Assembly: GCA_012295275.1 (NCBI GenBank)
Contig: CM022670.1
Span: forward strand, 5,518,001-5,582,000
Origin: Chrysomallon squamiferum
Lineage: Eukaryota > Animalia > Mollusca
Direction of reading: 5' to 3'
DNA length: 64,000 nt
The notes under the pieces were generated by a model. It had not been told where the DNA came from. It did not search any database and saw nothing but the letters and a program-made list of their open reading frames with translations. Shown here piece after piece: positions 18,081-44,044 of this stretch (positions within the stretch are counted from its first letter, which is position 1; every line of letters begins with the position of its first letter). Both the position numbers and the translations under genes were made by a program.

Positions 18081-20045
18081 CTATGGATGAGGAAGGCAGA
18101 AACAGTATTTCTTCAAGTAATGACTATCCACACATTTTGATTGATCTCCAAAAGCATTAATTCGACTGATATCTCCGTCAACAGTGTATTTCTTTGTCAT
18201 CTCATCATATTTCACAGTCCCCTCAAACATGCCCTTACCAGGACTGCTTACAATGGTTAGCTGATAAAGAGAAAATGCTTCAGTTCTGCTGCCATAGAAA
18301 ACAGTTCTGTTGATGACATCGTTTTTACTTTTTTTAAAGTAAAGTACTTTATCATTTGGCATCATAAGTGATGCATCCACTATATTGGAAACTCTAAGTT
18401 TAGCACATTTAAATCTGTAATCGTTTAATATGTAGTTGAGTTCTGACACTAAGCACTGTGCTGCGTTCAGTGCCTTTTTAGAAGTATTTAATAACTTCTG
18501 CCTGGCGAAACACATACACCAATGGGGTTGTATAGAAGCGTCAAAACAAGACCGACTGTTGGGAATTTCTTTAAAAAATGTAATTCCTCTTTTTGACGTC
18601 TCTCTCTTCATTGTCTCTCCTTTGAAGTAGAGTATATCTTTTAAAGTTTCATAAACGTCAAAAGGAGTAGAAAGTCTTTTTGAATTCAAAAGTAGATTAT
18701 TCCATAAAGTGCGATATTTTCGTAAAAACCAGCGAGGAAATACAAAAAATAAAAAAGGTAGTCGTTCTTCCAGTTTTCCAACAAACGTATTACGAATTCC
18801 ACCATATCTATTTCCATGATCACTGAAGTAAATAAGTAAAGTGTTATCTAGTATTCCGTCATTTTTGATAGTCGTCAGAAAGCGAAAGTGAGGATCATCT
18901 GCCATTCCTGCGTCATTGACGTTGTCGTGGGAAAGTCGAGTAAGAAATGCAAACGCAAAGTATGGCTTGTGAATATTCTGAACAGTAAAGTCACGTACGT
19001 ATTTTAAAACAATATCAGACTCCATTCGATCTCCAACACAGTGGTGATCACGATTCCACAATGATTTCTGTTTTTCCATGGCAACGCTAAACGCTCTGTT
19101 GTAATAGTCTGCCGGGGCTTTATGGAAGCCTTCCTTGCAGTACGTAAAGATTGCGATTTTCGGTGCATCTTCGGCATATAAAGTTTTGAAACCATGCTTA
19201 GAATATTCTTTCCATATAAAATTATATTGGTCAAACGGTTTTTTCACCATGGTTTCATTCCACGGCAGTTCGTCCACGTACTTACCAGCCATCATCGGAA
19301 CGATGTTAACAAAAGTATTATCGGCAACTTTTGTATAACCAAGCATCTCAATGGCTCCGAGCTTTTCAAGAAATTGTTTTGTTTTAGGCATCTGTCGCAT
19401 GAAGTTCAGCCGGGATACGGAATCAACTCCTATCATCAATACATTTAAGGTTTCTTTTGGCTTATGTTGCTGCAGGTATTGCTGTAGTTTTGTTCTGCAG
19501 TCTCTCTCAACGTCAGGTTTAGGAATAACTATTGAGTGAAAGTTTGTGTATATTCTGCCTTCTGATCTGCTGTAACAATACACTCGTATAAATTCATGTT
19601 TTGACTGAATATCAGAAGAAAAAGGTTTTTCCAAAGGTCCATAAGTAAAATAGAAATCAGTTTCGTTGGGTCCTCTGATAATGGGCTGATATTTGCAATA
19701 TTTAAAATCACCTTTGTAATATTCATTTATGACAGTCCAGTTTAGTCTGAGCATTGGACCATCTTCAAAGGTTATCGAAGGTTTTCCTAAGCAGATAATT
19801 TTTTTCCGTATTCGTATAATATGTAAAATGGATTTGTCGAATGGATCAATGTCTGGTATTTTACAAGTCTGAGTGTCTATAAGAAAACCCCGTGAACTAG
19901 TTTCAGATGTGTGTAACTCCAGAAGGGGTATACTGGAACGGGAAAACACCTTAAACTCTAACAGAAAAGTTAATATCAGAAAAACTGCAAGTAAAACGAC
20001 CAGTCGAAAAAATCTCCTTCTGAACAACGTTATCTGGCCAGCCAT
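18081..20045 (-). CDS. DUF229-family (alkaline phosphatase/sulfatase superfamily) type II membrane protein, ~654 aa, single coding exon
   Basis: The ORF track gives 663 aa from a non-ATG start. The true ATG is likely 20045, which follows a splice acceptor ttacag|ATG. N-terminal RRRFFR plus hydrophobic anchor. Family motifs: NVLMIGVDSVSRLNFMRQMPKT, GYTKVADNTFVN, TLYAED, SHD, FSDHGNRYG, GKLEERLP, LSTPFDVYETL, RSCFDASIQPHWCMC, ISRINAFGDQSKC and KKYCFC. Confidence 0.92.
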   Translation of the reverse strand: MAGQITLFRRRFFRLVVLLAVFLILTFLLEFKVFSRSSIPLLELHTSETSSRGFLIDTQTCKIPDIDPFDKSILHIIRIRKKIICLGKPSITFEDGPMLRLNWTVINEYYKGDFKYCKYQPIIRGPNETDFYFTYGPLEKPFSSDIQSKHEFIRVYCYSRSEGRIYTNFHSIVIPKPDVERDCRTKLQQYLQQHKPKETLNVLMIGVDSVSRLNFMRQMPKTKQFLEKLGAIEMLGYTKVADNTFVNIVPMMAGKYVDELPWNETMVKKPFDQYNFIWKEYSKHGFKTLYAEDAPKIAIFTYCKEGFHKAPADYYNRAFSVAMEKQKSLWNRDHHCVGDRMESDIVLKYVRDFTVQNIHKPYFAFAFLTRLSHDNVNDAGMADDPHFRFLTTIKNDGILDNTLLIYFSDHGNRYGGIRNTFVGKLEERLPFLFFVFPRWFLRKYRTLWNNLLLNSKRLSTPFDVYETLKDILYFKGETMKRETSKRGITFFKEIPNSRSCFDASIQPHWCMCFARQKLLNTSKKALNAAQCLVSELNYILNDYRFKCAKLRVSNIVDASLMMPNDKVLYFKKSKNDVINRTVFYGSRTEAFSLYQLTIVSSPGKGMFEGTVKYDEMTKKYTVDGDISRINAFGDQSKCVDSHYLKKYCFCLPHP

Positions 20046-20151
20046 CTGTAACGATATTAATATGGACAGCAATTAACATGTTTTAAAAATTCTATTTGAA
20101 ATTATTGCATTTTACTTACTTGAATTTTAAATATCATCATCATCATCATCA

Positions 20152-27800: not shown

Positions 27801-29594
27801 TTTATCATCATTTACAATTGTAATGAAAGAGTGAATGAAATATAGAAGAGAGATGCAATTAAAAACGTTATTTTATTTTAATATAGTTCATGAAATAAAA
27901 AATATGAAAATGATGAATCATATTAGAGATTTCTTTTTATGTAAAATACAACTAGCATGTGAAACAGTTGAAACTATTTAGTTGAAACATGTTTTAGAAC
28001 AGACACTACTGTTCTGGCCAATGCTAAATTTTATTGAAAGAAAAAGGAAAAAAGTAAAAGTTTGCTTAATCTAAAGGGTGCAAGGATTAACTTAGCCATA
28101 AAAATCACTGATACTGATAGTGATGTGCATCATACTGATACATCATACACTGATACTGTGATATTAATTCTGTGACAGTGAAGATGTAGCTGCTATATAT
28201 GTTACAAAAGTTGTCACTGTGCTTCTCTCAAAGGTCACCTGACTTCTGTGACATGTTTTTGCTTTATTTGTAGGGGGTTCCCTCATTCTCATTTATGTAT
28301 TGTCATTATTTTTAGTAATATTTACATATTTTCTAAGAATTAAAACATATCATGATGTAATATACATATTCAGCATCATCGTATTCATTTATTGCCATGT
28401 CATCTTTGATACACAGAGTTGAATCAACAGACAAATTTACCATTTCAAAATGACCATTGTGTGACTGTAATAAGCTTATTTGGTAGTGTAAATCATAGTT
28501 AAAATCAAGCTACAAATTGTGCATTTCTCTAAAAATTTTATACAAATATTTTGGGTAGCAAGTACTTAATTTTGGATATCAAAATATGAGGTGTTCTCAG
28601 CAAATTGGTATGGACTTAGTCATTACCTCTGCTGGCAATGTCTGAAAAGTTCGATATTGCATTTGTTTAATCTAGTAATTATGTGGACTAATAATCCAGT
28701 TTTAGATAATATTTTCTTTCTGATCAAGATGTTGGTTATGAAGACGGTTCTTAGCAACTTTGATTTTTATGACTTATTTTTTACATCTGTGTAATGAAGT
28801 TATTCAGCAAATGAACATTAATTAATGTTATTAATTAACTGATAAAATAAAATAAAAAATAAAAAATAAAATATTCACCAGTCTTATAAAATGATATTTT
28901 TGTACACTGGTTTAACTTCTATGGAGTTTTTAAGAATTTCATAATGAAGGTGTAAGGTACATATGAGCTAAGTAGTGCAAATAATTGATAAAAATTCAGG
29001 AATGTCAGCAATATGCTTAACAATACTAAACTCTTCTCAAGCCTCATTTCAATCTATAAACTGTAATAGTTAATACATGTATATTGTATATCCATAATAT
29101 TGGTTTCAATCTATATGAGGCATTTAGTGTTTAAATAAATCAGTTTCTCCAAAGAATGACAGATTCTGATAGAAAAAATACCGGCTAATTTTATTCTGAT
29201 AAAAATTCCTAACTTTTAACTTAACTTGGTGTACTTTTAATCTACATTTTTTTTTTTTTTTTTTTTCTTTCTGATGATGATATATTATTATATATTATAT
29301 AATTTTATAGGAAAATGGTATTTTTGAAAATTTTGTCACACATCTGTATAGTGATACTGACACTAGTGACAGTCACATTCATAGACAGTGCTAATGACAG
29401 ATTTAACTTGAATCTTAAGTTATACAAGTTAGTTAATAGTATAGTTATACTACAAGTTGTAGTAATATCAGGCGACTCACTGTCATTTCTTCCATTTCAA
29501 AGTGAACAATATTTTCTACGTGTTTTGCTGATACACATTCTGTAAATGTATACAGCAAAGATAAAACAATTAGAAAATAAATGCTTGAAGTCAT
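24844..29594 (-). CDS. GM2A: Ganglioside GM2 activator-like secreted/lysosomal lipid-binding protein (ML/MD-2-related domain), ~203 aa
   Basis: Exons 29481-29594 (signal peptide MTSSIYFLIVLSLLYTFTECVSA), 26562-26741 (FSYKQC...IKSLNFDPDPLVFPG), 25353-25520 (LPCLGFIGSCNYDDIC...CP...IPCHCPFPK) and 24844-24993 (GVYDL...GEYFARL...VACYEL). All junctions are phase 0 and GT-AG. The cysteine pattern is that of GM2AP. Orthology versus paralogy is unresolved. Confidence 0.88.
25977..26410. repeat. Minisatellite, ~41-bp unit (tgtcaacatgtagcagtgtgactactgttacatgtacaaaa), ~10 copies, in a GM2A-like intron
   Basis: Near-identical head-to-tail copies with no spacers. Confidence 0.95.
27712..27795 (+). mobile_element. 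Decayed tRNA-derived SINE head / tRNA pseudogene
   Basis: A-box-like tagctcagtttgtaaagtg (~27719-27737) and B-box-like gggttgaact (~27774-27783). It does not fold into a clean cloverleaf. Confidence 0.4.
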
Positions 29595-29912
29595 AGTGTA
29601 TTATTATCACTTTTTCCTCCTTTACAAAACAACAGTCGGAAGCACATGATAATCACGAGATTTTAGTCTCAATTAATATTGAGTTGTCTGAAACCGTTTT
29701 TTCAAAAACATTTGAACAAATCAAGACTCGATGGGGTTTTTTTTTTTTTAATTTCGTGAATAATACGGAAACAGACGAATTGTTCCGATTGTGACGAAGG
29801 CCGTGAAATAGAGTGGGGGGATAAAAAAAAAAAATAAAAAAATAAAAATGGCTGCTTACATGCGATGAAGATGTGGAGAAAATTGCAAAAATGAAAAGAT
29901 TTTTGGATATCA
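29595..29912. promoter_or_regulatory. Bidirectional promoter GM2A-like/FBXW7, with a probable non-coding first exon of FBXW7
   Basis: CpG-enriched relative to the flanks. YY1-like AAAATGGC at 29845-29852. A donor CA|GTAAGC at 29912/29913 could pair with the acceptor tttcag| at 31696. Confidence 0.55.
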
Positions 29913-31720
29913 GTAAGCACTTGATTAGGTTATCGCATTTGTTTTTAGTCTCGACATCGAATTAATGAATAAGTTTAACATGTTTCAAATAATCGAAATG
30001 AAAATTCGTCGTGAATGTTTTCAATTTAATTCAATAATTCATTAGTTCAATAGTTGAATAGTTCCTAATATTCATTATATTGTAATAATTATATATAATT
30101 TTATATCATATTATTAAATTAAGGTTTATATCAAGTCAGACGAACCGAATACCGTTTAAATTGTCCATTTTAGATTTATAATTTCTAACTCGTAACTGCT
30201 ATAGACTATAGCATACTACTATAATGTCTTTGGTATAGATTAGAATAATAAAAATACGTATATAACATTATGATTATCATAATTACACTGATTATTATCT
30301 CGGATTTGATTTATACCGTATAAGGGTATTTTGATATAGAGCGTATAACTATAACGTGTAAGCCATTTTAGTTATATAATTCAGTCTGTTCATCAATTCT
30401 CAAAAAGCACAGAGAAACAAAATTTAAATTTACAGATTGGCTGATTCCATTTTGATTTTTTTGTACTTTAGTGTTAATTAATAATAATAATAAAGTCAAA
30501 CGTTGTTGCCCTAAAACTATTTACCACAATACTGAATAATATCTCTTTGTCTAATCTGACATATTTTATTATTTTTATTAATTTTGCTATGCACAATTTT
30601 AATGTATATGATGATCATATCAGTATATATCTTGATTCTTAAGCAGGATTGCCACCTCCATCAGCTAAAGCTTTGGCTACTTTTCTCTCAGCAAGAACAA
30701 ACAAATAAAGAAAAATAAACTCATTTAGACATGTTCTGGATACCAGAATTAGCTATATTTGCAACTTAATATGTGCATATGTTATCTTGACATCCAGACC
30801 CAAGCAATTTTAACTGTTTATATCAAAAATCATCAGAGTTTTACACACACTGCTATTTCAGATCACAACATTGAGTCAAAATGATTTTGCACCAGTAGTA
30901 ATTACTGAAGTGACAGAAGAAATTTCCTTCCATGAAATCTATTTCTGTCTGTCTTTCCATTTCCAAAACACTTTAGATTTAGTTCTTCTGTGTAGTTCTT
31001 GTAATATATAAATGTCTCGTTTTTGGTGCTTAAGTTTTGAAAAAAACCCTACTCACAATTAACATAATGTATAAACTATTTCTACATCACTTTGTCTCAG
31101 TTTGCCTAATTTCTTACAAGTCACTATTCAGTGAAAAATAGTGAAGAGTTGGACAAAAAGCAGTCTTTTGGCTGTTTGGAGTTAAGAACATTGTCAGATT
31201 CCTGTTTTCATAAGCTTCATTGTTATATCTTATTGATTTATTCATCCCTGTATTACCTTGCTTTGTCTAAACATTAACATGCTGGCAGTTGGTAAAGTTA
31301 ATGAAAAATTATGTCTTTTTCTCAGAAAATGAGGCATGCAGCAAATAACAGTGTGCATAAAAGTGCTTTATTATTAATATCTATCAAATGCCTCACTTGA
31401 TGGAGAAAAAGTATGTTTAAACTTATTTTTAACAAAATATCAAAACTTCTGTTGCATTCCAGTGACTAAAGATTAGTGTATGTGACTTAAGACATGGTTT
31501 GATGACAAGTCACATTTCAACACTGATATTGATATGTTATATATATATATGTCATTTGATCATTGATGTTGATGAGCTGTTATTTCAACACTGATGGTGT
31601 TGACAATATCTGTGTTGTATTGTATCAAGTAATATTTCTTACTATTAATTGAGTGTATTTTTGTTTCTATTAGCTAAGTTTATTTGGTCATTTCAGCATT
31701 TCTGCTAATGATGTCCTGGC

Positions 31721-34700
31721 ATGGCTCGTCGCAGAATTGATGTTAACACTGCAACAGCTGTTGAGTTCGAAAAACTTGTTGGAGTTGGTGCATGCAAGGC
31801 TGAAGCTATCATTAAACATCGAAATGTACTGATAGTAGTTTTTATGTGTGAATCCATTAATAATATGCTTCTACCACATTATAATTTTTTGATACATAAA
31901 ATTTCTGATTAATATTAATATAAATGTATATGTTGATATCAGTTATAATGTTTAGCAAGTTAAAAATAGATTTAACTAATAAAAAAACAAACAGAATATA
32001 GCTTTACATAAAGAGTTATGGTATTGACATACAGAATAGAGTTAGTATTAGTGAATAATAGCATCCACATACAGAATATGTGGTGATATATCCTGAGACC
32101 TGGTATTCACCTGATATTCACATATACTACAAAAACAATATAGAATTTTATTTCAGTACCACTTAGTGTTATTCTGATTTAATGCTTGTAAAATGTTTTG
32201 AATGTGTTTTTCTTTTTAATCTTTCTTTTTTCTCTCTTCTTTTCTTTTTGCTGTTTATTTATATTTGATTCTTGCAGGAAATAGGTTCTTTTAGAAGTGT
32301 TGATGACCTGAGTGATGTTCCTGGGGTCAGTAGCTGTTTAGTTCATCTAAACCGAAAACGTCTGCTGTGTCGACCATTACCTCATAAAATTAGAGCTTAC
32401 ACACCTCGCAGAGGGTAAGATGTTTTTCACACTGATAAAATGTGTTTTTGTACCTTTAAAATCTACTGTTAAAATACTTTGTTACTAAAATCTTCAGTTA
32501 AAATACTTTGTTACTAAAATCTTCAGTTAAAATACTTTCTTATGCTACTAAAATCTACTGTTAAAATACTTTCTTATGTTACTAAAATATGTTATGATAC
32601 TAAAATGTACTGTTTAAATACTGTATTGTGTTACAGAAATCTTCCTTTGAAATATTTTCTTGTATTACCAAATGTCCTGTTAAAATAAATTATAATTTAT
32701 TGTGTTATAAAAGTTTAGTGTTAACATCTACAAGTTCAACTTGTTTGCATATTTAAAATTAATTTTTGTCATATATTTATAAACATCTCTGTAAAAATGT
32801 TTTGTAATTTAGATTTATTAATTTTACTAGTCATGAGAAATGTATTGGACTTCTGCTTGGAACTTAGTATCACATTAATGATATGAATCTGACATATTTT
32901 GTGTTTATCCAGTGGATGCTTTTAATAATATTCACAGTAATCAGTTACATTTTTTGCCCTGCCTTGAAAAATCATCATCTCCAAGAAAGTGTTATGTAAT
33001 GAGATGATGTGATAAAGTTAAATGAAAAGTGCTAAACAATGGTCACTCAGAAGGGTGCAGTTATTACGAGTAACACAGAAAATAATGGTACCATGGTACA
33101 TGAAAAATAATTGATGTCTTTTTTGTCGTCAATATTTCAACCATAGAATAATTCCAATAGACAATTATTATTTTGTGCTGGTGTGTCATTAAACAAACAT
33201 TAAATCATCTAATTACAACATATTTTTTTCTTAAAATATTTTCTTTCATTACTAACATACATTTTTTTTTTTTTTTTTCTGTGTAGACTTCGTAGGCTGA
33301 CTCGACAATCTTCCCAGCAGACCACATCAGAAAATTGTAGTGTGACAACTCAAAATTCAGACAACTCAAATGCAACATGTCATCAGTCAGACAGTTCAAG
33401 TGTGACAACACAACATTCAGATAGCTCAAATGAGACAACACAGCATTCAGACAGCTCAAATGAGGCAACACAACATTCAGATAATTTCAGTGTGACAAGT
33501 CAACATTCCGAAAATTTGAGCATTTCAAGTCGTCGACAGTTGGTGACACGGTCTCGAGTACATGATTTTTCTGTCAAAGATCTGTCTGAAGTTAATGGTC
33601 ACCAGTTGTCTGTGTGTCAAGTGAAAACACAGGTACCTGTCTTTAGTCAACAGTCACCTGTTAGTATTGTCTTTAGTCACCAGTCACCTGTTAGTATTGT
33701 CAGTAGTCACCAGTTACCTGATAGTTGTAACCAGTCATCTGTGAGTACATGTTGGTTATCACCAGTCACCCCTCAGTAGTCACTAGTCACATGTCACTAT
33801 TGTCAGTATTGTCAGTAGTCATCAGTTACCTGTGTGTGTGTGTCAGAAGTCACCAGTCACCTGTAATTATTGTCAGTAGTTACAGGGATCTGTATTCTGA
33901 AAATCCTGGTGTTTAGTAGAGATGTCCTAATTTCTGATTTTCTTGGCTAATTTCTTAATTAGCAGGTTTTTGGACTGAATATGGTTAGTCTGTTTAGATA
34001 TTTGCTATTGGGAGGAGTAACAGTTTTAACATGTCTAAAAACAGCACATTTTTTAGAATGTATTCAGTGTACACTTGTTTGTATTTTATGCATATTACAT
34101 ATATCCACAATTTTTATTGCCATGCACTTGTATTTATCCTCTTTACTTGCACTTAATTGCTGCACAGTTTGTTACAGTCACAAACATAAAATTAAACATC
34201 TACATGTATAAATCAGTATTCTGTTTCTAATTAAAATAGGACTTTTAACAACATATTTTATTCAGATTCAAACCACAACAAGTGATAAAATTATTTAGCA
34301 AAAGTGTTATTCTTATTTGTTTATGATTACTTGCAGTCTGGTTTTCAGACCTCTGCTTACATTTGTACAGTTATTTTTCATGTCCATCTCAATTAGTTTA
34401 ATTTGAATGCAAATTTAAAAGAACTGTTTATTGTCAACTTCTAAGCACAACAGTAGAACAATGCATTTTTGCAACTATTCATGCAGTTTTTCACATGATC
34501 TCATTCCATGTGACCAGTTGGTGATAGATAGACATCTCTGTTGTACTCATTCATAGAAACAAAGTCTGTATCAATTGATGAATGGTATAAGAAGGAGATA
34601 AAAAATTCATTAAGAATTCCACAAAAAAGGCCTTTAATGATTTGAAGTTTATCAGTAATCACCACATTTGTTTATATTGGGAATATATGGGTATGTTTTA

Positions 34701-37700
34701 ATAGTCATGAGTTGTATAGCGAAAACAAAGAGATGTATGTATTAATAATCACATCTGTCTGTAGTTATCTGTAGTAAATAAAATGTAGATGTGCAAAAAT
34801 AATTGTGAGTTCCGTGGTTGGTATTTATTAGCAATCATTAATTGTTTATACTGCAGGAAATGACAATTTGATATAGATATATTGGTTTTGAAGACAGTAG
34901 GCAATTTGATGAATGATGTAAAAACGTGGTGTTTAATAGTTAAAACATTTGTTTTTTAAATTCCTCGAAGCTGTTGTGAAAATCTGCCTTAGGTTTCTTA
35001 ATGAAATGTATTACTTTTAACTAAGAATTTTCAGCTCATTTTTACTGAATAAAATGAATAAAAACTTGTAAAAGATCTGTTTTACTCACATACACATTAT
35101 TTTTATTATTCTATTTTTGCTTTTTTTAAAAATTTATTTCCATGCAGGGTAATGTGAATTTTTCAAATCACTGTTTATAGTATCCAGAGTACTGAAGTCA
35201 TATGAAGTAATTTGTTGTTTTTTTTGTTTTTTTTACAGAATGGTGCAACACAGCCAAATGAACCAAAATATATGGATGCAGCAGACAACAGTGTTGGTGA
35301 TTTAACTGTTGACCATTCTAATGATGGTTCTGATCAGAGTGATGACGATGACGATCATGATGATGATGATGATGAAGTTGAAAGTGAATGTAGCTGTGAC
35401 TTGCAAGATGCTGCAGTTTTGAGACTGAGGCAGTCTGGGTTCATGGGTTCATGTACAGCAGTCTGCTCCTATAGTCATGTATGTAATAACTTCATGTTTA
35501 GTGAAAGTAAGCCTGTTTCTTCTAAAATCTGCTAAATATACTTTATACCTAAAACACTGACCCCTCCTTAGACTACCAAAAATTCTTATACAGCAGTAGA
35601 GTTCCATGAAAGAACAATCCAGCTGGACAAAATACACACAAAATAGTGGGATTCACAGTAGTTAGAATGACAAAGCTAACTTAACTATTCTGTTACAGAT
35701 TTTATGCAAATTGTAATGGAGAAGAAAGCTTTTAGGTGAAAAATGCAAATCTGTTAATTGACCTTGATTTTGACTTTATCAAAGTATATAATATCTGATT
35801 TTTATTCTTTCTTTCTTTTCTTTCCCCCCGCAAACCACACAGAATCGACATGTCCTTGTTATTTGTGAAAAAGATAATTAAACTTACGCTTCAAAATTGT
35901 TTATGTTACAGATGAAGAAAAGAAAATCAACACTTCTGAAGGATGATGGATTGTCACCAAGGAAGAAAATATGTCGAGTTCACTGTAAACACAGGTATTT
36001 ACTAAGAATTATTGTGAGTAGGTCCAGCCCAAATACATCTGATTATGCAGCAGAGTGCACTATCTTCAGTTACTGTTTCATATTCAGTTATTAAATTGTT
36101 CCTGTAAGAATAATTATTCTTACAGGAACCTTGTTCCATTCTTATCTTATGATGTGATGCATTCAGAATTTGAATATTTACCACTTTTTTTCCTTTTTTT
36201 TAAATTTTTTATTTTTTATTTTTTTTTTTTTCGACTGTGATGTGTTTTCTCCTAAGAGGTAGAGCCAGAGTTACACTGTTTAAAAAAACAAAATAAAATG
36301 AAATACTGTATCAAACATTACATTAACATATTTTCAAAACAGAATTTAAATACAGGTGTTAAACTCAAATTAAAAGAATGAATCATATTGAACAAGTTAT
36401 TATCTTAAAGACCTTATCAGTCTAAAGCAGATTGTCAAATATCTTTTGAAGAAAAAATCATTAATAATGATTTGATTATCTTTTTGTTTTTCAGTTATTA
36501 TCCCTGTCGTCATGCTTCAAATTCTGTCAGCAGCTGGATGCTGGGTAACTGCCCAAGTGGCAGTGTAGCCTTGTCTAGACAACGGATACCATCAAAAGAA
36601 AACCCACCACCCAAACTTTGTGGTTGGCTTCAAACATTCCAGGTTACAATTGTAATGTACCTTGTATTTGTGTCACTGTAACTGGCTAACAACTATGAGT
36701 ATATACAAAAAAGACACATTTAATATTAGTTTAGTCTGGTTTTATTGAACCGTTTAACAGTTGTAGGTATGCTTTTCTTACTGTGAGAGGCCTTATGCAT
36801 TAAATATTGGTTCACTTTGTAGGGATGGAGCAATGCTGAAAGGCTGATGGCTCTTGACGAGCTAATTACCTTCTGTGATCCCACACAAGTACGGCATTTG
36901 ATGCAGGTGATTGAGCCCCAGTTTCAGCGTGACTTCATTTCTCTGTTACCGAAGGAGGTTTGTAATTGATTTCACAAAGTCCTCTTGCAGTTCACTGTTT
37001 TACAAAGTTGACAGTATTTAATGAAATAGATTTCTAGTTAACGCTTTCATAAAGTAGACTTGTAGTTTACTCTTTCATAAAGTAGCTTTGTAGTTTACTA
37101 TTTCACAAAGAAGATTTAATTGTATCTTGTAGATTTAGAAAGAGATACATCTGTGTTTTACAAAGTATTTGTTTCAGTTTTACAAAATGATCACCTCAGT
37201 ATATACTAACCTGGTCGCTATTGTGGCAAAATACACTGAGCCTAGTTAATGTAGGATTCTATGTATCTAAAAGCTACTCACAAATTTTGATAATGGTAAC
37301 ACATTTTTTTTAAATTTGATTTTAGTTACGCAGACAGAAATGTCAACTAATTTATATAATTTTATAGGTAATATTTTAACAGAAATTTTCCTAACTAGTG
37401 GCAGAAAGCTGACCTATCACTGCAATAAACTGCTCTGTGTATTAATACAAACTTGTTATTACATCTGACTGTGTATTGTTAATACAAACTTGTTATTACA
37501 GCTGATGTTCTGTGTATTGTTATTACAGCTGATGTTCTGTGTATAGTTATTACAGCTGAGTGTCTGTGTATTGTTATTACAGCTGGCTCTCTATGTGTTG
37601 TCATTCTTGGAGCCCAAAGACTTGCTGCGTGCTGCTCAAACTTGTACTTACTGGCGAGTGCTTGCTGAAGACAATCTGCTGTGGAGGGAGAAGTGTAAGG

Positions 37701-40700
37701 AAGAGACAATTGACGAGTCACTAGTCTATGGTTGTCGACAGCGACAGAAAACTCGCTCTCAGAAAAGTCAGTGGAAGTCGCTGTACATGCGGCAGTACCA
37801 GATTGAACAGAACTGGCGTACTGGAATAATCAAGCCTCCAAAGGTAAAATCTTTTCAAATTTCTTTAATCTCCATTTAAGTAAAACTCAGTTACAGAATT
37901 TTGAAACCAAAACCCATGTAGATAGGTTCAGTTTGCCATTTCTCAACTAGTATTTATGTTGTGCATATGGTCAAATGCATTTTATAACTGACAGAAAAGT
38001 TTGAATTTTGATGTGCGTTCTGTAACAACAATAATGAGATTACAGTTTTAGATATATAGCAAAATTTGAATATTTCAGATGCTGAAAGGACATGATGATC
38101 ACGTGATAACCTGTCTGGAGTTTTGTGGCAGTAGAATAGTCAGTGGCTCTGATGACAACACACTCAAAGTGTGGTCAGCACTGTCTGGAAAGGTAACATT
38201 TGCTTTAATAAACATTATCTAGGTTCTAGCAACCATAACTGTCAATTTTTTTCCATTTTATGGATGTTTTTACAAAGAAAAGGTCAGACAAAAAAATCGT
38301 TCCTATCTCTATTCCAACAAAAGTTAGGGCTGTTTTCAGTATAACCCCCCCCAGCCTTTATAATCTGATTTTTATAATTCAAATGCAGCCATGATGGTTA
38401 GCATTTGATAACTTTCAACACATGCCAAATTTTCAAGTCCTCTCTAAAAAGCTTTTTCTTTTCAGACTTTCAACTTGACAGAAAAACTGTTTTTAGACAA
38501 TACTAATGTGTTTTGTGTTTCAGTGTTTGAGAACTGTTATTAGAAGATACACCTGTGTTTTGTGTTTCAGTGTTTGAGAACTCTGGTGGGACACACAGGA
38601 GGAGTGTGGTCTTCACAGATGTGTGGCTGTGTGGTTATCAGTGGCTCAACTGATCGAACTTTAAAAGTATGGAATGCAGACACTGGTCAGTGCAAACATA
38701 CTCTCTATGGTCACACCTCCACTGTCCGATGTATGAGTCTCCATGGAAACAAGTTAGTATCAGTCCACTCATATCTTAACCATTGATTATAAAATAAAGT
38801 GCTAATTTTTATCTGTATTTTATTTGATTTTTAGAAGTGATCTTTTTTGCTGCTTTTTAAAAAATTATTATTATTATTTTTTTTTTATATGTTTCTAATG
38901 AAAACTTTAACCATATTCATTTAACTTTTAATAGTGTACAGAAAACTGTTCTAACAAATGTGTCTGTAATTTAATAAAAATGTGCCCATTAAAGCTTTCA
39001 TCTCATGTTGCCATACATACAATTTAACACTAATAAATCCAGGAAGTTGTTATTTTTTATTAGTTTCATGGGTAGGCATTACCTGAGACCCACCTAGTAA
39101 CATGGTATTCTCTTTGCACCACATTTGTTGTCTTTACCATATTTTTATATTGTCATATTTTTCTAATCAACATTGTAATCAACTGAGCTGAATGTGGTGT
39201 TGGCAAAACAGCTGTGCTTGAATGAATACGTTGAAACTCATTTAGAATGGAGTGGAGTTTAAATCACTTTTGTCACTGTTTCTTTCAGCTGCTTGTAATA
39301 AATCTGTCAGTAAAATAAGAGAGAAATGATGATTGTTGATGACATAATGCCAGCTAATTCTGTGAATGTAACCAATTTTAAGTAATCTTTGAAATTAAAT
39401 ATCTGGTCATTTCTAATTAATCAAATTTTGGAAAGTTTGTGAGATAATTTCATAGATAAAATCAATATTCTGTTTATACTTCTCATCTCAGAAAAACAGC
39501 TTTAAAAATATTGCTAACAATATTTTGAGCATTTGTAATATTTGTTATTTTAAACATGCAAGATATATTAAATCGAAGGAGTGTCTTCTGTTTTTTAACT
39601 AATATTAAATATGTCTGAGAACTGGTGAATGAAAGCATTATGCAACAGTGTGTATATTTTGTTTTTAATGTTTTAATTAGTTTCATGCAATTTGTTTTTA
39701 AGTTTACTAATATTCGTAATATTTTGGTAATAATAATTGTCTAATTTTAGCTCCAAAAATAATCAATCACCTTTAAAATAACAATTGATTTAAACTACAG
39801 AAAATAATTAATAGTTACAGGTATCTTCCATCTATTAGTTACATAAACAGCTTGAAAAACAATAAATGCTGTGCTGTATTTTCCAAGAAAAGGAATTTGA
39901 ATTTTTGTACTTTGTGTTTGCTAATTAGAATTTTATTTAAGGTTATAGTCTAGATTCAAAGTTTACATCCATGTTACATTAAGAAAAATAACGAAAGATA
40001 TTTGTATATGTAATATAGTAATAATGCATGTAATTCTGATCCTTATATGAATTTGTTTATAATAAATGTTTTTTATATGTATGCATGACAAATCTTTATA
40101 AATGTTTGTTTTAGAGTTGTGAGTGGTTCACGTGATGCTACACTGCGACTGTGGGATGTTGAAAATGGTCACTGTCTTCATGTGCTCATGGGCCACGTGG
40201 CTGCAGTAAGATGTGTGCAGTATGATGGGCGCCGGATTGTCAGTGGTGCCTACGATTACACAGTCCGGGTTTGGGACCCAGAAACTGAAAGTTGCCTTCA
40301 CACACTTCAGGGTCATACAAACCGTGTATACTCCCTACAAGTAAGTTGTTACAGCTTTCATAATATTTTCAGTAAAATTCAGGGTCACAGAAACAGTATA
40401 TACTAACTACAAGTGAATTGTTGCAACTTTCATAATACTTTCAGTAAAATTCAGGGTCACACAAAGAGTGTATACTTCTTCAAGTAACTTGTTACAGCCT
40501 TCACAATACTTTCTAGTGACCATCAAAACTGTCATATTGGTATCTTCCACTAATAAAATGTCCCATGTTTTAATTTGATATTGATCTGGTAGATTAAATA
40601 TACTTTCACATATAAATTTTTGAAGTCCAGGAATAAAATAAAGCAACAACTTGTTTTAAAATATGAAGGGTTTGTAGTAATTTGGTAATATAAAAAACAA

Positions 40701-41850
40701 ATATTAAAAAAACAAAAAATGAAGTTTTATGGCAGTGTTAAATATCAGTGAGAGAGGTCTGGTTGAAGCATACTACACAAGTAGATACAGACAGACACTG
40801 CTGGTGAAGCATTGTTTTGTCTTTTTTTAATTTAATATTTAAGTTGATTTATTTCAGTAAATTAAAGTAGTATTATTGTTTTCTATCTTACAGAACTAAA
40901 AATGTTTTTTAAAACAATTATTGGATGTAAATATGTTACATTAATATTTTGTGCAAATGTGTAAATAATACTGCTGATTACTGCAAATAAAAGTTAATAC
41001 TGTTGTAAATCATTACACTACAAATTATTTGTGCAGCAGCTTTTCAAGAAAGTTCACCTCCTCTGCAATTTAATCTGTTTTTTTTTCTGTTTTTTCTGAA
41101 TCTCACAAAATTATGTTTTGTAGTACAAACTGTGATTGAGTGTTGGTCAAACAGTGTTAGGTAGGCAAATATTGCTGCTCATCTGATCATTTTAAAAAAT
41201 GATTTAAAGTTCTCCCATCATTTAACAACAAGCTGTGTTTTGTGTTTTTATAGTTTGATGGTATCCATGTGGTCAGTGGTTCACTGGACACATCTATACG
41301 AGTGTGGGAGGTGGAAACTGGAAATTGTCTTCACACTCTGATAGGTCACCAGTCATTGACCAGTGGTTTGGAGCTCAAAGACAATATACTTGTATCAGGA
41401 AACGCAGACTCAACAGTCAAAGTGTGGGACATTACTAGTGGACAGTGTCTGCAGACTCTGCAAGGTCAGTCAGAACCAAACTTTTTGTAAATTCTTTAAA
41501 CATTTCATTTCAGCTTTTTGTAAAAGTAACTAATTCTGATATTTGTTTCATTTGTTTCAGGACCAAACAAACATCAGAGTGCTGTGACATGTCTGCAGTT
41601 CAATAAAAAGTTTGTTATCACGTCATCTGATGATGGGACAGTTAAGATATGGGATTTAAAAACAGGAGAATTTTTACGAAATCTGGTTTCCCTGGACAGT
41701 GGTGGGAGTGGAGGTGTTGTGTGGCGTTTGAGAAGCAGCAATACTAAACTGGTGTGTGCAGTGGGCAGTCGGAATGGAACTGAAGAAACTAAGCTTCTTG
41801 TTCTTGACTTTGACGTGGAAGACAAAAAACTTAGCACTTATAAAGAATGA
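31721..41850 (+). CDS. FBXW7: F-box/WD repeat-containing protein 7 (SCF substrate receptor) with an N-terminal tandem helix-hairpin-helix extension, ~825 aa
   Basis: Exons 31721-31825, 32278-32414, 33287-33632, 35239-35478, 35912-35994, 36495-36642, 36823-36957, 37583-37843, 38079-38192, 38571-38752, 40115-40340, 41254-41464 and 41561-41850. All are GT-AG with closing phases, total 2478 nt. The D-domain/F-box (ALDELI...[32 protein letters not shown]) and WD40 repeats ending [17 protein letters not shown] are diagnostic. The core (35912-41850) is near certain; joining of the first four exons is inferred from phase. Confidence 0.93.
32455..32690. repeat. Intronic minisatellite (~27-34 bp, ctaaaatct(a/t)c(t/a)gttaaaatactttgtta)
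   Basis: About seven degenerate copies. Confidence 0.8.
33633..33885. repeat. ~30-bp tandem repeat (cagtcacctgttagtattgtc) starting at the FBXW7 exon-3 donor
   Basis: Repeated cag(t/c)acctg units begin with the cag|gtacctg junction. Confidence 0.8.
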
Positions 41851-41851
41851 T

Positions 41852-42790
41852 TGTCCACATACATAGTATTTTTAAACAATGTGTCCACATGGAGGGCAAG
41901 TGTATAGTTTGTCCACATTGAGGCTGAGTGAATGTATACAGTGTGTCCACTTAGTGAGTGTATACAGTGCATCCACATACAGTAAGTGTGTGCAGTGAGT
42001 GTGCACAGTGTGTCCAAAAACTGGGTGAATGTATACAGTTTGTCCACATACACTGAGTGTATACAGTGTATCCACATAGAGTAAGTGTATACAGTGTGTA
42101 CAATGTGCCCACATACTGGGTGAATGTATACAGTGTGTCCACATACCTTGAGTGTATACAGTGTGTCCACATACATTGAGTGTATACAGTATGTCCACAT
42201 ACACTTAGTGTATACAGTGGATCCACACACATTGAGTGTACACAGTGGGTCCACATACATTGAGTGTATACAGTGAGTCCACATACACCGAGTGTATACA
42301 ATGTATCTATATGTTGAGTGAGTGAATGTTTACAGTGTGTCTACATACATAGTGAGTGTGTACACTGTCCACATATGTATTAGTGTATACAGTGTGTATA
42401 TGTATCTTCATATACAGTGTGTCAGTGTACAGTGTGTACAGTGTCCACACAGTGAGGCTCTACAGAGTTCATATACAGAGTGAGTGTAAACAGTGTCAGT
42501 ATACAAAATAAGTGAATGTATATAGTGTTTTTACATTCAGTGAGTTTATACTGTGTCCACATACAGTACGTATATATAGTGTCCACACACAGTGACCGTA
42601 TACAGTACAACCACTTACAGTGTGACCATATACAGTATGTGAATGTATACAGTGTGTCCAGTGGTAGTCTATATACAGTATCCACACATTCTAAACATGA
42701 TAGTAGTCTGTTGGCAGTATAAAATGTAATTGCATGTATACACAGTTTCTGTATAGTACGATTGGACAGTGTGTTCACAAAAATGCTGGT
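41852..42790. repeat. Minisatellite (~26-30 bp, gagtgtatacagtgtgtccacatacatt) directly after the FBXW7 stop codon
   Basis: Dozens of degenerate copies of gtatacagtgtgtccac. This array explains the spurious CIHS/VDTL ORFs. Confidence 0.92.
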
Positions 42791-44044
42791 TAGATGAGTA
42801 CAGAGTGAATGTGTAGAATCCCCATACAGAGAGAATGTGTGCAGACTAAATGCAAAGTGGCTCTTTAAACAGTGTCACTAAATTTACATAAGGAAAAATT
42901 GCAGAATTTGGTGATGCTTGTTTTTTTTTTTAGATGTGCCTGTTGTTTTCTGTGTTGTTTTAATTTTGTTGGCTGGATGTTGAGAAGGGTGACAGTGTCA
43001 TCAAATGTCCTGCTCAGTTGTAATTATACTGCTATTGGCACAAGTGCTTATCTTTGTTTTGTTTCCATCAGACATTTTGTTTGTATGATAGGCAGGCTTG
43101 ATTAGATATTTTATTTGTTTGATTACAATGTTCATTTGTGTTTTGTTTTTTTCTGTTATATATGTTTAGATTATTTTTTTGTGTGTTAGATAATGTGGTA
43201 AAGTTGAACATTTTGTTCAGCTGTGTATAGCTGCATGATGTTTGTGAGGTGTGGTTGGATGTTCATTGTTTTGTTTGTGAGATATGGTTATATGTTCAGT
43301 GTTTTGTTTGTGAGATATCTATCAGAAGTTTTAAGCAAGAATGGTGAAATAAGAATTTCAGTTAAGCCAAAAAAAAAAAAAAAAAAAAAACCCCCCCAAA
43401 AAAAAACAATCTGTGAATTTGTTTTAATATTACAGTTTGATTACATCAGTCTGTTCAGTAGTCCACTGTGGTCATGTTAGAGTAATGCCTTACGTCTAAA
43501 CATTTTTTCCCTTTATTGTTCCTTTTACTTCTTTTGTTGTTGTTATTCATTTAATAATTCGTAATATTGTCAAGGATATATTATGTTCATACTAAATATA
43601 AAGGATAATTTCTTCCTTTTTACTTTCTTTTTTCTTCATTTTTTTTTCCATATAGAATAATTGTGGAATATTTATTTGTTTTTTTAAACTCAAAAAAAAA
43701 AAAGGACAATAAAGATGTCTTTCTTGTTAATATTTCTGATGTGGGTCAAATAAAATAAATAAAATTAGTATCAAATTGAATTGGTAACTAAAATAAAATT
43801 AACAGTGTTTGAAAAGGTTTTCAAAAATTACTCTCCAGTTGAAAAGTTTTCCATCTCAATATCTGACACAGAAATCACATCTCCCAACAGTTTAGGTTAA
43901 GAATAAGTTGTAACCATGTTCAGATATTTGTCACAGACACCATCCATGTGTTGATGTATTAGCCATAGATATCAGTATGTTCTGACATTTTTTGTATGGT
44001 GCATTTCCACATGTTCAAGCTGTTTTGCATTACATCATTAGCCA

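Follow-up and report, generated by a model that had tools for sequence, protein, structure and literature searches.

The substrates of FBXW7, a major tumour suppressor, act largely on chromatin, where the way in which it locates them has been explained only in part. The N-terminus of human FBXW7alpha reportedly binds DNA; targeted literature searches for a paper on this binding found none. DDB2, a receptor of the ubiquitin ligase CRL4, is itself a DNA-binding protein and reads UV lesions with its WD40 propeller. The human FBXW7 isoforms carry, according to one description, different localisation signals at the N-terminus (PMC11694028), and human FBXW7 is reported to act at DNA breaks, where it is retained via its N-terminus, in a source that also names DDB2 as a binder of poly(ADP-ribose) (PAR) (PMC6486556). 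Among helix-hairpin-helix (HhH) proteins, the K164A substitution in ComEA of B. subtilis is reported to lower transformation more than 100-fold and the equivalent K166A to abolish binding in EMSA (PMC9747964), and K62/63A is reported to abolish binding by ComEA of V. cholerae (PMC3879209). The isolated HhH pair of EEPD1, a two-domain fragment, is described as not binding DNA unless the protein is dimeric (PMC12988330).

The window, the whole 64,000-nucleotide stretch of Chrysomallon squamiferum DNA that was analysed, contains an FBXW7 gene of 13 coding exons, all with GT-AG ends, which together form one open reading frame of 825 aa with its sole stop at the end (Table 1). The order of domains is a ComEA-type HHH_3, a disordered linker, the D-domain, the F-box and the WD40 repeats. 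A sequence-only reading of this DNA had joined two HhH exons, 31721-31825 and 32278-32414, to the FBXW7 exons. Their boundaries, phases (0, then 2) and GT-AG ends are as it claimed, with exon 3 starting at 33287, and the frame does run without a stop through the phase-0 junctions 33632/35239 and 35478/35912 into the FBXW7 core. The exon at 35912 is also the counterpart of the common exon of vertebrate FBXW7, as proposed, with Met277 and the basic stretch both matching. With respect to gene extent, the exons within 31721-36957 stand, and the non-coding leader exon (to 29912) and the remainder to 41850 had been missed.

Table 1. Features of the FBXW7 gene of C. squamiferum, in positions of the window
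Feature	Position	Strand	Content and evidence
Non-coding leader exon, 3' part	29855..29912	+	Joint 29912/31697, GT..AG, in 3/4 RNA runs; short side of 58 letters in X1
Coding exon 1	31697..31825	+	24 nt leader, ATG 31721; residues 1-35, first HhH motif with hairpin G21-V22-G23, K26, R34; RNA, HHH_3
Coding exon 2	32278..32414	+	Residues 36-80, second HhH motif (hairpin G51-V52-S53), N60, L64, C66, then Arg-rich tail
Coding exon 3	33287..33632	+	Ser/Thr-rich linker with 30-bp minisatellite at 33327-33516; RNA, ORF
Coding exon 4	35239..35478	+	Acidic linker; RNA, ORF
Coding exon 5	35912..35994	+	First residue Met277, then basic NLS-like stretch; matches common exon of vertebrate FBXW7
Coding exons 6 (36495-36642) and 7 (36823-36957)	36495..36957	+	D (dimerisation) domain, beginning of F-box
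Coding exon 8	37583..37843	+	F-box, linker helices; PF12937 E 2.4e-13
Coding exons 9-13 (38079-38192, 38571-38752, 40115-40340, 41254-41464, 41561-41850)	38079..41850	+	WD40 propeller, phosphodegron-pocket arginine motifs; stop 41848-41850; WD40 seen on closest homolog

The RNA evidence consists of assembled contigs from four runs of one study. Joint 31825/32278 was found directly in three of the four runs and joint 35478/35912 in all four, while joints 32414/33287 and 33632/35239 are absent from the RNA joint table because joints at repeats were dropped from it; these two are instead supported by adjacent pieces within contigs, exon 3 adjoining exon 4 in X4 record 11. Two single contigs, X3 record 9 (3124 nt) and X2 record 6 (3637 nt), each contain the HhH exons, exon 3 and the last WD40 exon, and offsets in the X3 contig agree with the gene model to the base as far as exon 8. 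The HhH exons are thus joined to the F-box and WD40 exons in RNA, as had been claimed, in contigs from two of the four runs. Contig depth over the HhH exons and downstream was 18.5 vs 35.1 in one run and 9.3 vs 15.1 in another, a measure that cannot rank gene parts.

The match to the ComEA/HHH_3 profile is significant, as the sequence-only reading had it: Pfam HHH_3 (PF12836) gives exon 1 alone 31.4 bits against a cut-off of 27 (E 2e-7, profile 4-35) and continues at 36-61 in exon 2, where its 11.6 bits are alone below the cut-off. The FBXW7 HhH domain scores 55.3 with TIGR00426 (cut-off 53.1). A homolog, P0001, scores 49.4 bits with PF12836 and, with TIGR01259, which describes the whole ComEA protein, 48.7 bits, under the cut-off of 152.35. 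Residues 1-74 of P0001, 66/72 identical to the C. squamiferum protein, served as the fold model. The AF2 model of this domain (pLDDT 87.9) has the two-HhH fold, and its best structural match is ComEA 8dss (Z 12.6, rmsd 1.0, 66 residues aligned; Foldseek E 7.8e-4), compared with Z 4.4 for ERCC1-XPF. Profile matches come in the order EEPD1 9yi2, ComEA 8dfk and ComEA 8dss, EEPD1 being the best PDB match by whole-sequence E (2.7e-27) and ComEA having the best single-domain score (64.1 bits, vs 56.7 for EEPD1). Tex, Spt6 and TEFM share the fold, as do PsbU and GspK, the last two not being known to bind DNA. On these scores EEPD1 and bacterial ComEA are both candidate donors of the domain, whose Atlas neighbours, at feature scores <0.9, are ComEA-type clusters from bacteria or viruses.

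Residues were counted over 80 distinct full HhH stretches on FBXW7 proteins. In the 8dfk alignment FBXW7 position 26 corresponds to B. subtilis K164, and the same offset sets K193, K197 and K199 on lysines. All 80 stretches have K or R at position 26, beside neighbours (24 and 25) that vary freely, which is the pattern expected of a phosphate contact. G23, A27, R34 and F40 are each found in all 80, G21 in 76, and C66, which lies beyond the ComEA pattern, in 78. The second hairpin is often degenerate, with G at position 53 in 35/80 and R at position 55 in 19/80, where the residue is otherwise mostly small; a second GxG with its following lysine (Bs K193) is lacking in the C. squamiferum protein, which has G51-V52-S53 and C55. 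Net charge over the 80 stretches is modest (median +4, range -4 to +9). Prediction of an HhH homodimer scored 0.01 against a mark of 0.42, in a run without folded controls, and counts neither for nor against such a dimer.

By its place in the tree the protein is an FBXW7 orthologue. It is sister to that of Gigantopelta (100/99) within a lophotrochozoan clade (100/99), and the core, nested among mollusc FBXW7 proteins, is 96% identical to Gigantopelta over 491 columns. The protein matches the D/F-box profile, and the D-domain appears as three helices at 298-337 in the model of the closest homolog. Three arginine motifs of the phosphodegron pocket are common to all seven proteins compared (C. 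squamiferum, gibbon canonical, two paralog rows, crab, amphioxus and Clytia). The linker of about 260 residues is predicted to be flexible, residues 73-290 of the closest homolog model having pLDDT <50. It contains eight S/T-Q sites, against 0-4 in 17 other proteins; a cluster of ATM sites as a family feature was rejected, the cluster being a product of the species-specific 30-bp repeat.

HhH domains were found at the front of FBXW7 in a cnidarian (jellyfish), crustaceans including crabs, an annelid, a brachiopod, nemerteans, echinoderms including starfish, a hemichordate, amphioxus and a tunicate. They also stand at the front of a second vertebrate FBXW7 paralog in sharks, lungfish, amphibians, turtles, alligator and birds; chicken has both this paralog and canonical FBXW7. 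The paralog, which is linked to RRP8, is often mislabelled as an RRP8 isoform. In total the full domain is present in 123/340 F-box-bearing proteins examined, a sample that favours carriers, and none of the insect, nematode or canonical vertebrate FBXW7 rows showed it. To our knowledge, Drosophila Ago and C. elegans SEL-10 lack HhH. The second paralog was not seen in mammals, teleosts, frogs or squamates among the matches listed (two lists of the best 120, at most 15 members per cluster), and a word search with the shark HhH, with just five chondrichthyan proteins in 51 candidates, is too insensitive for dating. The intron position at codon 35|36, the 5' edge of exon 2, is common to this gene, a nemertean, the vertebrate FBXW7-like paralog and the canonical long isoforms. 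The sequence-only reading was right that a ComEA/EEPD1-type module is spliced in frame to FBXW7, yet the cnidarian-to-bird spread and the trees make this neither a recent event nor a mollusc or annelid addition. Judging from these comparisons, the HhH-bearing FBXW7 is most probably the original form in animals, and the lineages that have served for FBXW7 research have lost it. One fusion would have preceded the cnidarian-bilaterian split, with later losses of the domain in insects, nematodes, caenogastropods and canonical vertebrate FBXW7.

Canonical vertebrate FBXW7 likely retains a degenerate second HhH half, which starts at the shared intron position and lies immediately upstream of the alpha start. 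Four weak (about 11-bit) profile matches mark this relic, which is nearly invariant from fish to mammals and keeps its helix faces (F40, L46, V49, N60, L64) without the hairpin glycines of either signature; such near-invariance without the hairpins indicates a constraint other than DNA binding. The canonical gene would thus have lost the first HhH exon and kept a degenerate second one, and the second paralog would have kept the whole domain. Accordingly, the open frame conserved upstream of the alpha start in mammals can be reinterpreted as the remnant of a structural domain. Constraint on the 23 codons ahead of this start may lie in the protein or in an IRES reported for circ-FBXW7. The Cys-rich front exon of the canonical long isoforms was considered as a relic of HhH exon 1 and rejected, the best window of the first-half profile scoring no better than -16 bits in 4/4 rows.

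As to function, we think it reasonably probable that the HhH domain binds DNA weakly and without regard to sequence, that dimerisation of FBXW7 reinforces this binding, and that the ligase is thereby enriched on chromatin. The first hairpin and K26 would touch DNA phosphates in the manner of ComEA K164/K166/K63. A single domain would be too weak, so that the D-domain dimer would provide two, the basic tail assisting in many lineages. Tethered SCF would then more often meet phosphorylated chromatin substrates (of the MYC, Notch ICD or Jun type) or DNA-damage sites, and DNA contact combined with degron binding would act as a two-signal filter. Because the second hairpin is G-V-S and the EEPD1 pair needs a dimer, a weak tether that works by avidity is likelier than a stable DNA anchor, though the first-hairpin lysine is kept. 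The degenerate second hairpin, the modest charge, the failure of the EEPD1 fragment to bind DNA on its own, the presence of the fold in PsbU and GspK, the several lineages without the domain and a relic conserved without hairpins all count against a DNA tether.

The same degenerate hairpin, together with C66 outside the ComEA pattern and a canonical relic that keeps helix faces alone, would suit a module for protein contact or autoregulation whose target is a partner, a deubiquitinase or the FBXW7 core, not DNA. HhH pairs are described as mediating heterodimers in XPF-ERCC1 and Mus81-Eme1 (PMC12988330), and USP28 has been reported to bind the FBXW7alpha N-terminus (PMC6019044). We nevertheless regard this as rather unlikely, since the ComEA DNA-contact position is basic in all 80 stretches next to freely varying neighbours, and the nearest folds are ComEA, not XPF. 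The domain might also recognise another polyanion or DNA structure (RNA, PAR, forks, ends or cytoplasmic DNA), serving as a sensor of damage or foreign DNA in place of a general chromatin tether. The fold it shares with Tex, Spt6 and TEFM is compatible with such a role, EEPD1 is said to prefer fork-like dsDNA (PMC12988330), ComEA affinity is given as 2.5-fold higher for DNA ends (PMC3879209), and PAR is reported to recruit human FBXW7, though via the WD40 (PMC6486556). However, ComEA, the closest in both sequence and fold, is a general dsDNA binder, the linker is followed by a basic NLS-like exon, and the S/T-Q cluster is confined to this species, so that this explanation too seems unlikely to us.

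There is very little probability left for the fusion being a gene-model artefact, with the HhH exons as a separate gene, a mobile element or an untranslated leader, an explanation already largely refuted. Upstream, an ORF of 21 codons (ATG 29891) runs out of frame across the HhH start codon, Met277 could begin an HhH-less protein, HhH-less isoform models exist in Styela and birds, and the RNA support is from contigs of a single study. Against this, single contigs cover the HhH to WD40 exons, the full domain recurs across many phyla, the N-terminus is identical to that of Gigantopelta at 66/72 residues, and the intron position is shared.

The ancestral animal FBXW7 may have been a DNA-tethered SCF receptor, a proposal to which we give an even chance. 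The tether would have been lost in mammals, flies and worms each, the systems used to study FBXW7, whereas birds, turtles, amphibians and sharks would have retained it on an unstudied second gene. Mammalian FBXW7alpha would have its start codon inside the wreck of the old DNA-binding domain, and PAR- and ATM-dependent recruitment may have replaced the tether. A predicted nucleic-acid-binding domain retained from jellyfish to chicken would offer a direct handle on how FBXW7 finds its substrates. Automatic Pfam annotation already displays the HhH and FBXW7 architecture, so that what is new is its recognition, dating and explanation; the sequence-only reading knew of no HhH on FBXW7, and targeted literature searches likewise found no paper describing one.

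The C. squamiferum protein has the same D-domain, F-box, WD40 propeller and pocket arginine motifs as FBXW7, Archipelago, SEL-10 and Cdc4, and differs from canonical vertebrate FBXW7 in carrying a folded HHH_3 (residues 1-66) where the latter has only a degenerate half. With ComEA (PF12836, TIGR00426; 8DSS, 8DFK) it shares the two-HhH fold, the first-hairpin GxG and the position of the essential lysine. Unlike in ComEA, the domain sits on a eukaryotic ubiquitin-ligase subunit, without a membrane anchor or the ComEA oligomerisation domain, and the second hairpin and its lysines are poorly kept. EEPD1 (9YI2), another protein of animals, has flexible linkers bearing ComEA-type HhH modules before a dimerising core, and is the best functional analogue, with avidity through the dimer. 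Whereas EEPD1 is defined by tandem HhH modules, two per chain, together with an EEP domain at the C-terminus (PMC12988330), the C. squamiferum protein has a single HHH_3 stretch followed by F-box and WD40 and does not belong to that family. Should the weak DNA tether hold, the protein would work like DDB2 of CRL4, another receptor of a cullin ligase that one of its own domains brings to DNA; here, though, the receptor belongs to an SCF and would be tethered by an HhH domain that is separate and probably sequence-independent.

The FBXW7 locus in the window reads, from its sequence, as a gastropod-type gene on the plus strand, with a single 825-aa frame in 13 coding exons, all of which are flanked by AG and GT. 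The exon phases by which the sequence-only reading had joined a ComEA-type helix-hairpin-helix (HhH) domain to FBXW7 agree with the translation of these 13 exons. Five sequencing runs matched part of the window; four are RNA, from one study, and were aligned over 29400-43400 as assembled contigs, not long reads. The leader joint 29912/31697 and the joint between the two HhH exons, 31825/32278, were each seen in three of these four runs (X1-X4), and joint 35478/35912 and the seven joints downstream in all four. The exon 3 joints are missing from the joint table, but are visible as adjacent contig pieces. Two contigs (X2 record 6 and X3 record 9) each extend from the two HhH exons as far as the last WD40 exon, and the offsets of the X3 contig equal the gene model exactly, up to and including exon 8. 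Ending of the HhH transcript at TAG 33777, raised earlier as an alternative to the fusion, is not the main path because exon 3 ends at 33632 in contigs from X2, X3 and X4. Through the upstream ORF and the ATGs near the FBXW7 start, less of the HhH form might be translated, or initiation might shift downstream to Met208 or Met277.

Features of the FBXW7 locus and neighbouring genes
Feature	Position	Strand	Remarks
DUF229 gene, long exon	19029-20048	-	PF02995, E 1.5e-54
Gene head to head with FBXW7 leader exon	29481-29594 (first exon), spliced to 26741	-	First exon signal-peptide-like; later exons contain Cys and resemble those of ML/GM2-activator lipid-binding proteins; no Pfam match in the two short exons scanned
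Upstream ORF	29891-29912 + 31697-31740		21 codons, out of frame; begins in leader exon, stops just beyond main ATG
Two further out-of-frame ATGs	31708, 31711		Near FBXW7 start
FBXW7 frame	ATG 31721 to stop 41848-41850	+	
Coding minisatellite	33327-33516		30-bp unit, about 6 copies; lengthens the FBXW7 linker and gives it a species-specific S/T-Q cluster
Related 30-bp repeat	33638-33725		Runs on into intron
FBXW7 3' UTR	41850-43356		Long, with 28-bp and related repeats; lengths differ among RNA runs
Exons, then membrane segment	45904-49349	-	Reading frames; we take the exons to resemble sushi/CCP repeats

In a profile scan of the window exons, exon 1 by itself exceeded the HHH_3 cut-off, and exon 2 picks up the profile at position 36. 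The closest homolog, P0001 from Gigantopelta, has an N-terminus identical to the window protein at 66 of 72 positions and was folded in its place. Its residues 1-74 gave a predicted fold with pLDDT 87.9, the best structural match being ComEA 8dss (Z 12.6, rmsd 1.0, 66 residues; Foldseek against ComEA, E 7.8e-4). The full-length model is confident over 1-70 and disordered over 73-290; helices of the D-domain and F-box come next, and then the propeller. Of the 14 PDB sequences matched by a profile built from 25 HhH copies, EEPD1 and ComEA ranked first.

Homologs were taken from an F-box-exon search (best 120 of 499), a whole-alignment search (best 120 of 1104) and a third search, run against 1.84 billion representatives (150 listed). 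A local HhH profile matched 70 of the first 179 proteins (64 full, 2 half, 4 weak). The final set held 457 sequences, 340 with a D/F-box, and a full HhH domain was present in 123 of these 340, which is not a frequency because the queries were biased towards carriers. Carriers include lophotrochozoans (gastropods, bivalves, one chiton, Lingula, Lineus, Owenia), crustaceans (Hyalella, Eriocheir, Cyprideis), non-vertebrate deuterostomes (Glandiceps, three sea stars, Branchiostoma, Styela) and the cnidarian Clytia, whose match is under the cut-off yet clear (TIGR01259 E 5e-9, TIGR00426 E 1e-7). Vertebrate carriers belong to a second paralog, FBXW7-like, found in sharks, rays, Callorhinchus, lungfish, caecilians, salamanders, turtles, alligator and birds including chicken. 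Among the rows examined, HhH was not found in FBXW7 of the insects Hermetia and Epargyreus, Trichinella, Gordionus, a millipede, the caenogastropods Littorina and Batillaria, Priapulus (573 aa, from a model that may be short) or three unicellular holozoans of uncertain orthology. No row, carrier or otherwise, could be named as sponge, ctenophore, placozoan or anthozoan. In three caenogastropod-type proteins (P0043, P0047, P0272) no HhH could be detected, although they too begin with a short basic motif of similar kind.

A tree of the FBXW7 core alone (52 rows, 492 columns) placed the window protein sister to Gigantopelta (100/99). The FBXW7-like rows form a single clade (100/99), joined at 98/98 with canonical vertebrate FBXW7, itself a clade (100/99); lungfish and two turtles possess both. 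Littorina and Batillaria fall within carrier gastropods, and HhH was therefore apparently lost in caenogastropod-type FBXW7. A second tree, built quickly from 32 rows with SH-aLRT as its only support and with long branches flagged, is weak in its deep order; it set Clytia within the animal group and the insects among arthropod rows, some of them carriers. The FBXW7-like paralog adjoins RRP8, since many bird and turtle models are labelled RRP8 isoforms or fused with RRP8 sequence. Among these models (P0131, P0140, P0176, P0185, P0214, P0273) are some that splice RRP8 onto the second HhH exon; such hybrids are either read-through or merged gene models. The RRP8-linked region is presumably paralogous to 4q31.3.

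Half-domain isoform models from Tubulanus, birds, one turtle and one caecilian start at position 36, the codon boundary of the window HhH intron. This boundary, common to the lineages, suggests a single origin of HhH on FBXW7. Within the homologs examined, the profile scan found no HhH in canonical vertebrate FBXW7 beyond a degenerate second half, which lies upstream of the alpha start. At least 23 upstream residues are present in 57 of 78 canonical proteins with the alpha-start motif, and differing 5' sequences meet this block at one common point, where protein models rather than DNA indicate a probable exon boundary. Fifteen distinct 31-residue blocks scored 9.7-21.1 bits (z 5.1-6.7) against a profile of positions 36-66, with 0 of 20,000 shuffles each, and the block was the top-scoring window in all 57 proteins. 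An invertebrate-only profile still gave 11.5 bits (0/20,000), hhalign aligned the block with the HhH second half in register (P 3.6e-5, probability 71.5), and in a background of 262,353 windows the top two were more fish relics and the next scored 5.8. Judged by similarity, the block appears to be a relic of the HhH second half, in which hairpin G51 has become E and position 59 is the alpha start Met. An IRES of circ-FBXW7, reported to cover 120 nt ahead of the ORF (PMC6019044), could add nucleotide-level constraint at the relic.

The HhH-FBXW7 fusion is real and ancient. Public Pfam annotation already shows the domain on FBXW7, and the literature searched, with few subscription journals and supplements outside its scope, gave, among the matches listed, neither a description of it nor a paper on an FBXW7-like paralog kept in birds and lost in mammals. 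The main text of the EEPD1 paper (PMC12988330) mentions neither FBXW7 nor ComEA. The fusion is thus apparently undescribed, and a domain-architecture table in some supplement could list it.

The function of HhH on FBXW7 we infer from its residues and relatives. Position 26, aligned with K164 of B. subtilis ComEA, holds a K or an R in each of 80 distinct FBXW7 copies, and R34, by spacing the likely equivalent of V. cholerae R71, is present in all 80. Loss of the Geobacillus equivalent of K164 abolishes DNA binding (PMC9747964), and V. cholerae ComEA K63 is likewise needed (PMC3879209). Counted against strong DNA binding are the degenerate second hairpin, the modest net charge and the behaviour of the EEPD1 HhH pair. 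The domain might instead serve as a protein-contact module, which we regard as improbable, or as a sensor of RNA, PAR or DNA structures, which is no less improbable. Human FBXW7 is brought to breaks by WD40-PAR binding and retained there through ATM phosphorylation of its N-terminus (PMC6486556); it is speculation that this recruitment took the place of an HhH tether.

Of these readings a tether acting through avidity is favoured, and we consider it reasonably probable, because FBXW7 possesses a dimerisation domain (PMC11694028). The HhH domains of dimeric FBXW7 would together hold weakly, and more ligase would thereby be concentrated on chromatin. The predicted fold of the FBXW7 HhH, with P0001 as stand-in, is that of ComEA. 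EEPD1 binds DNA as a dimer and not as an isolated HhH pair (PMC12988330).
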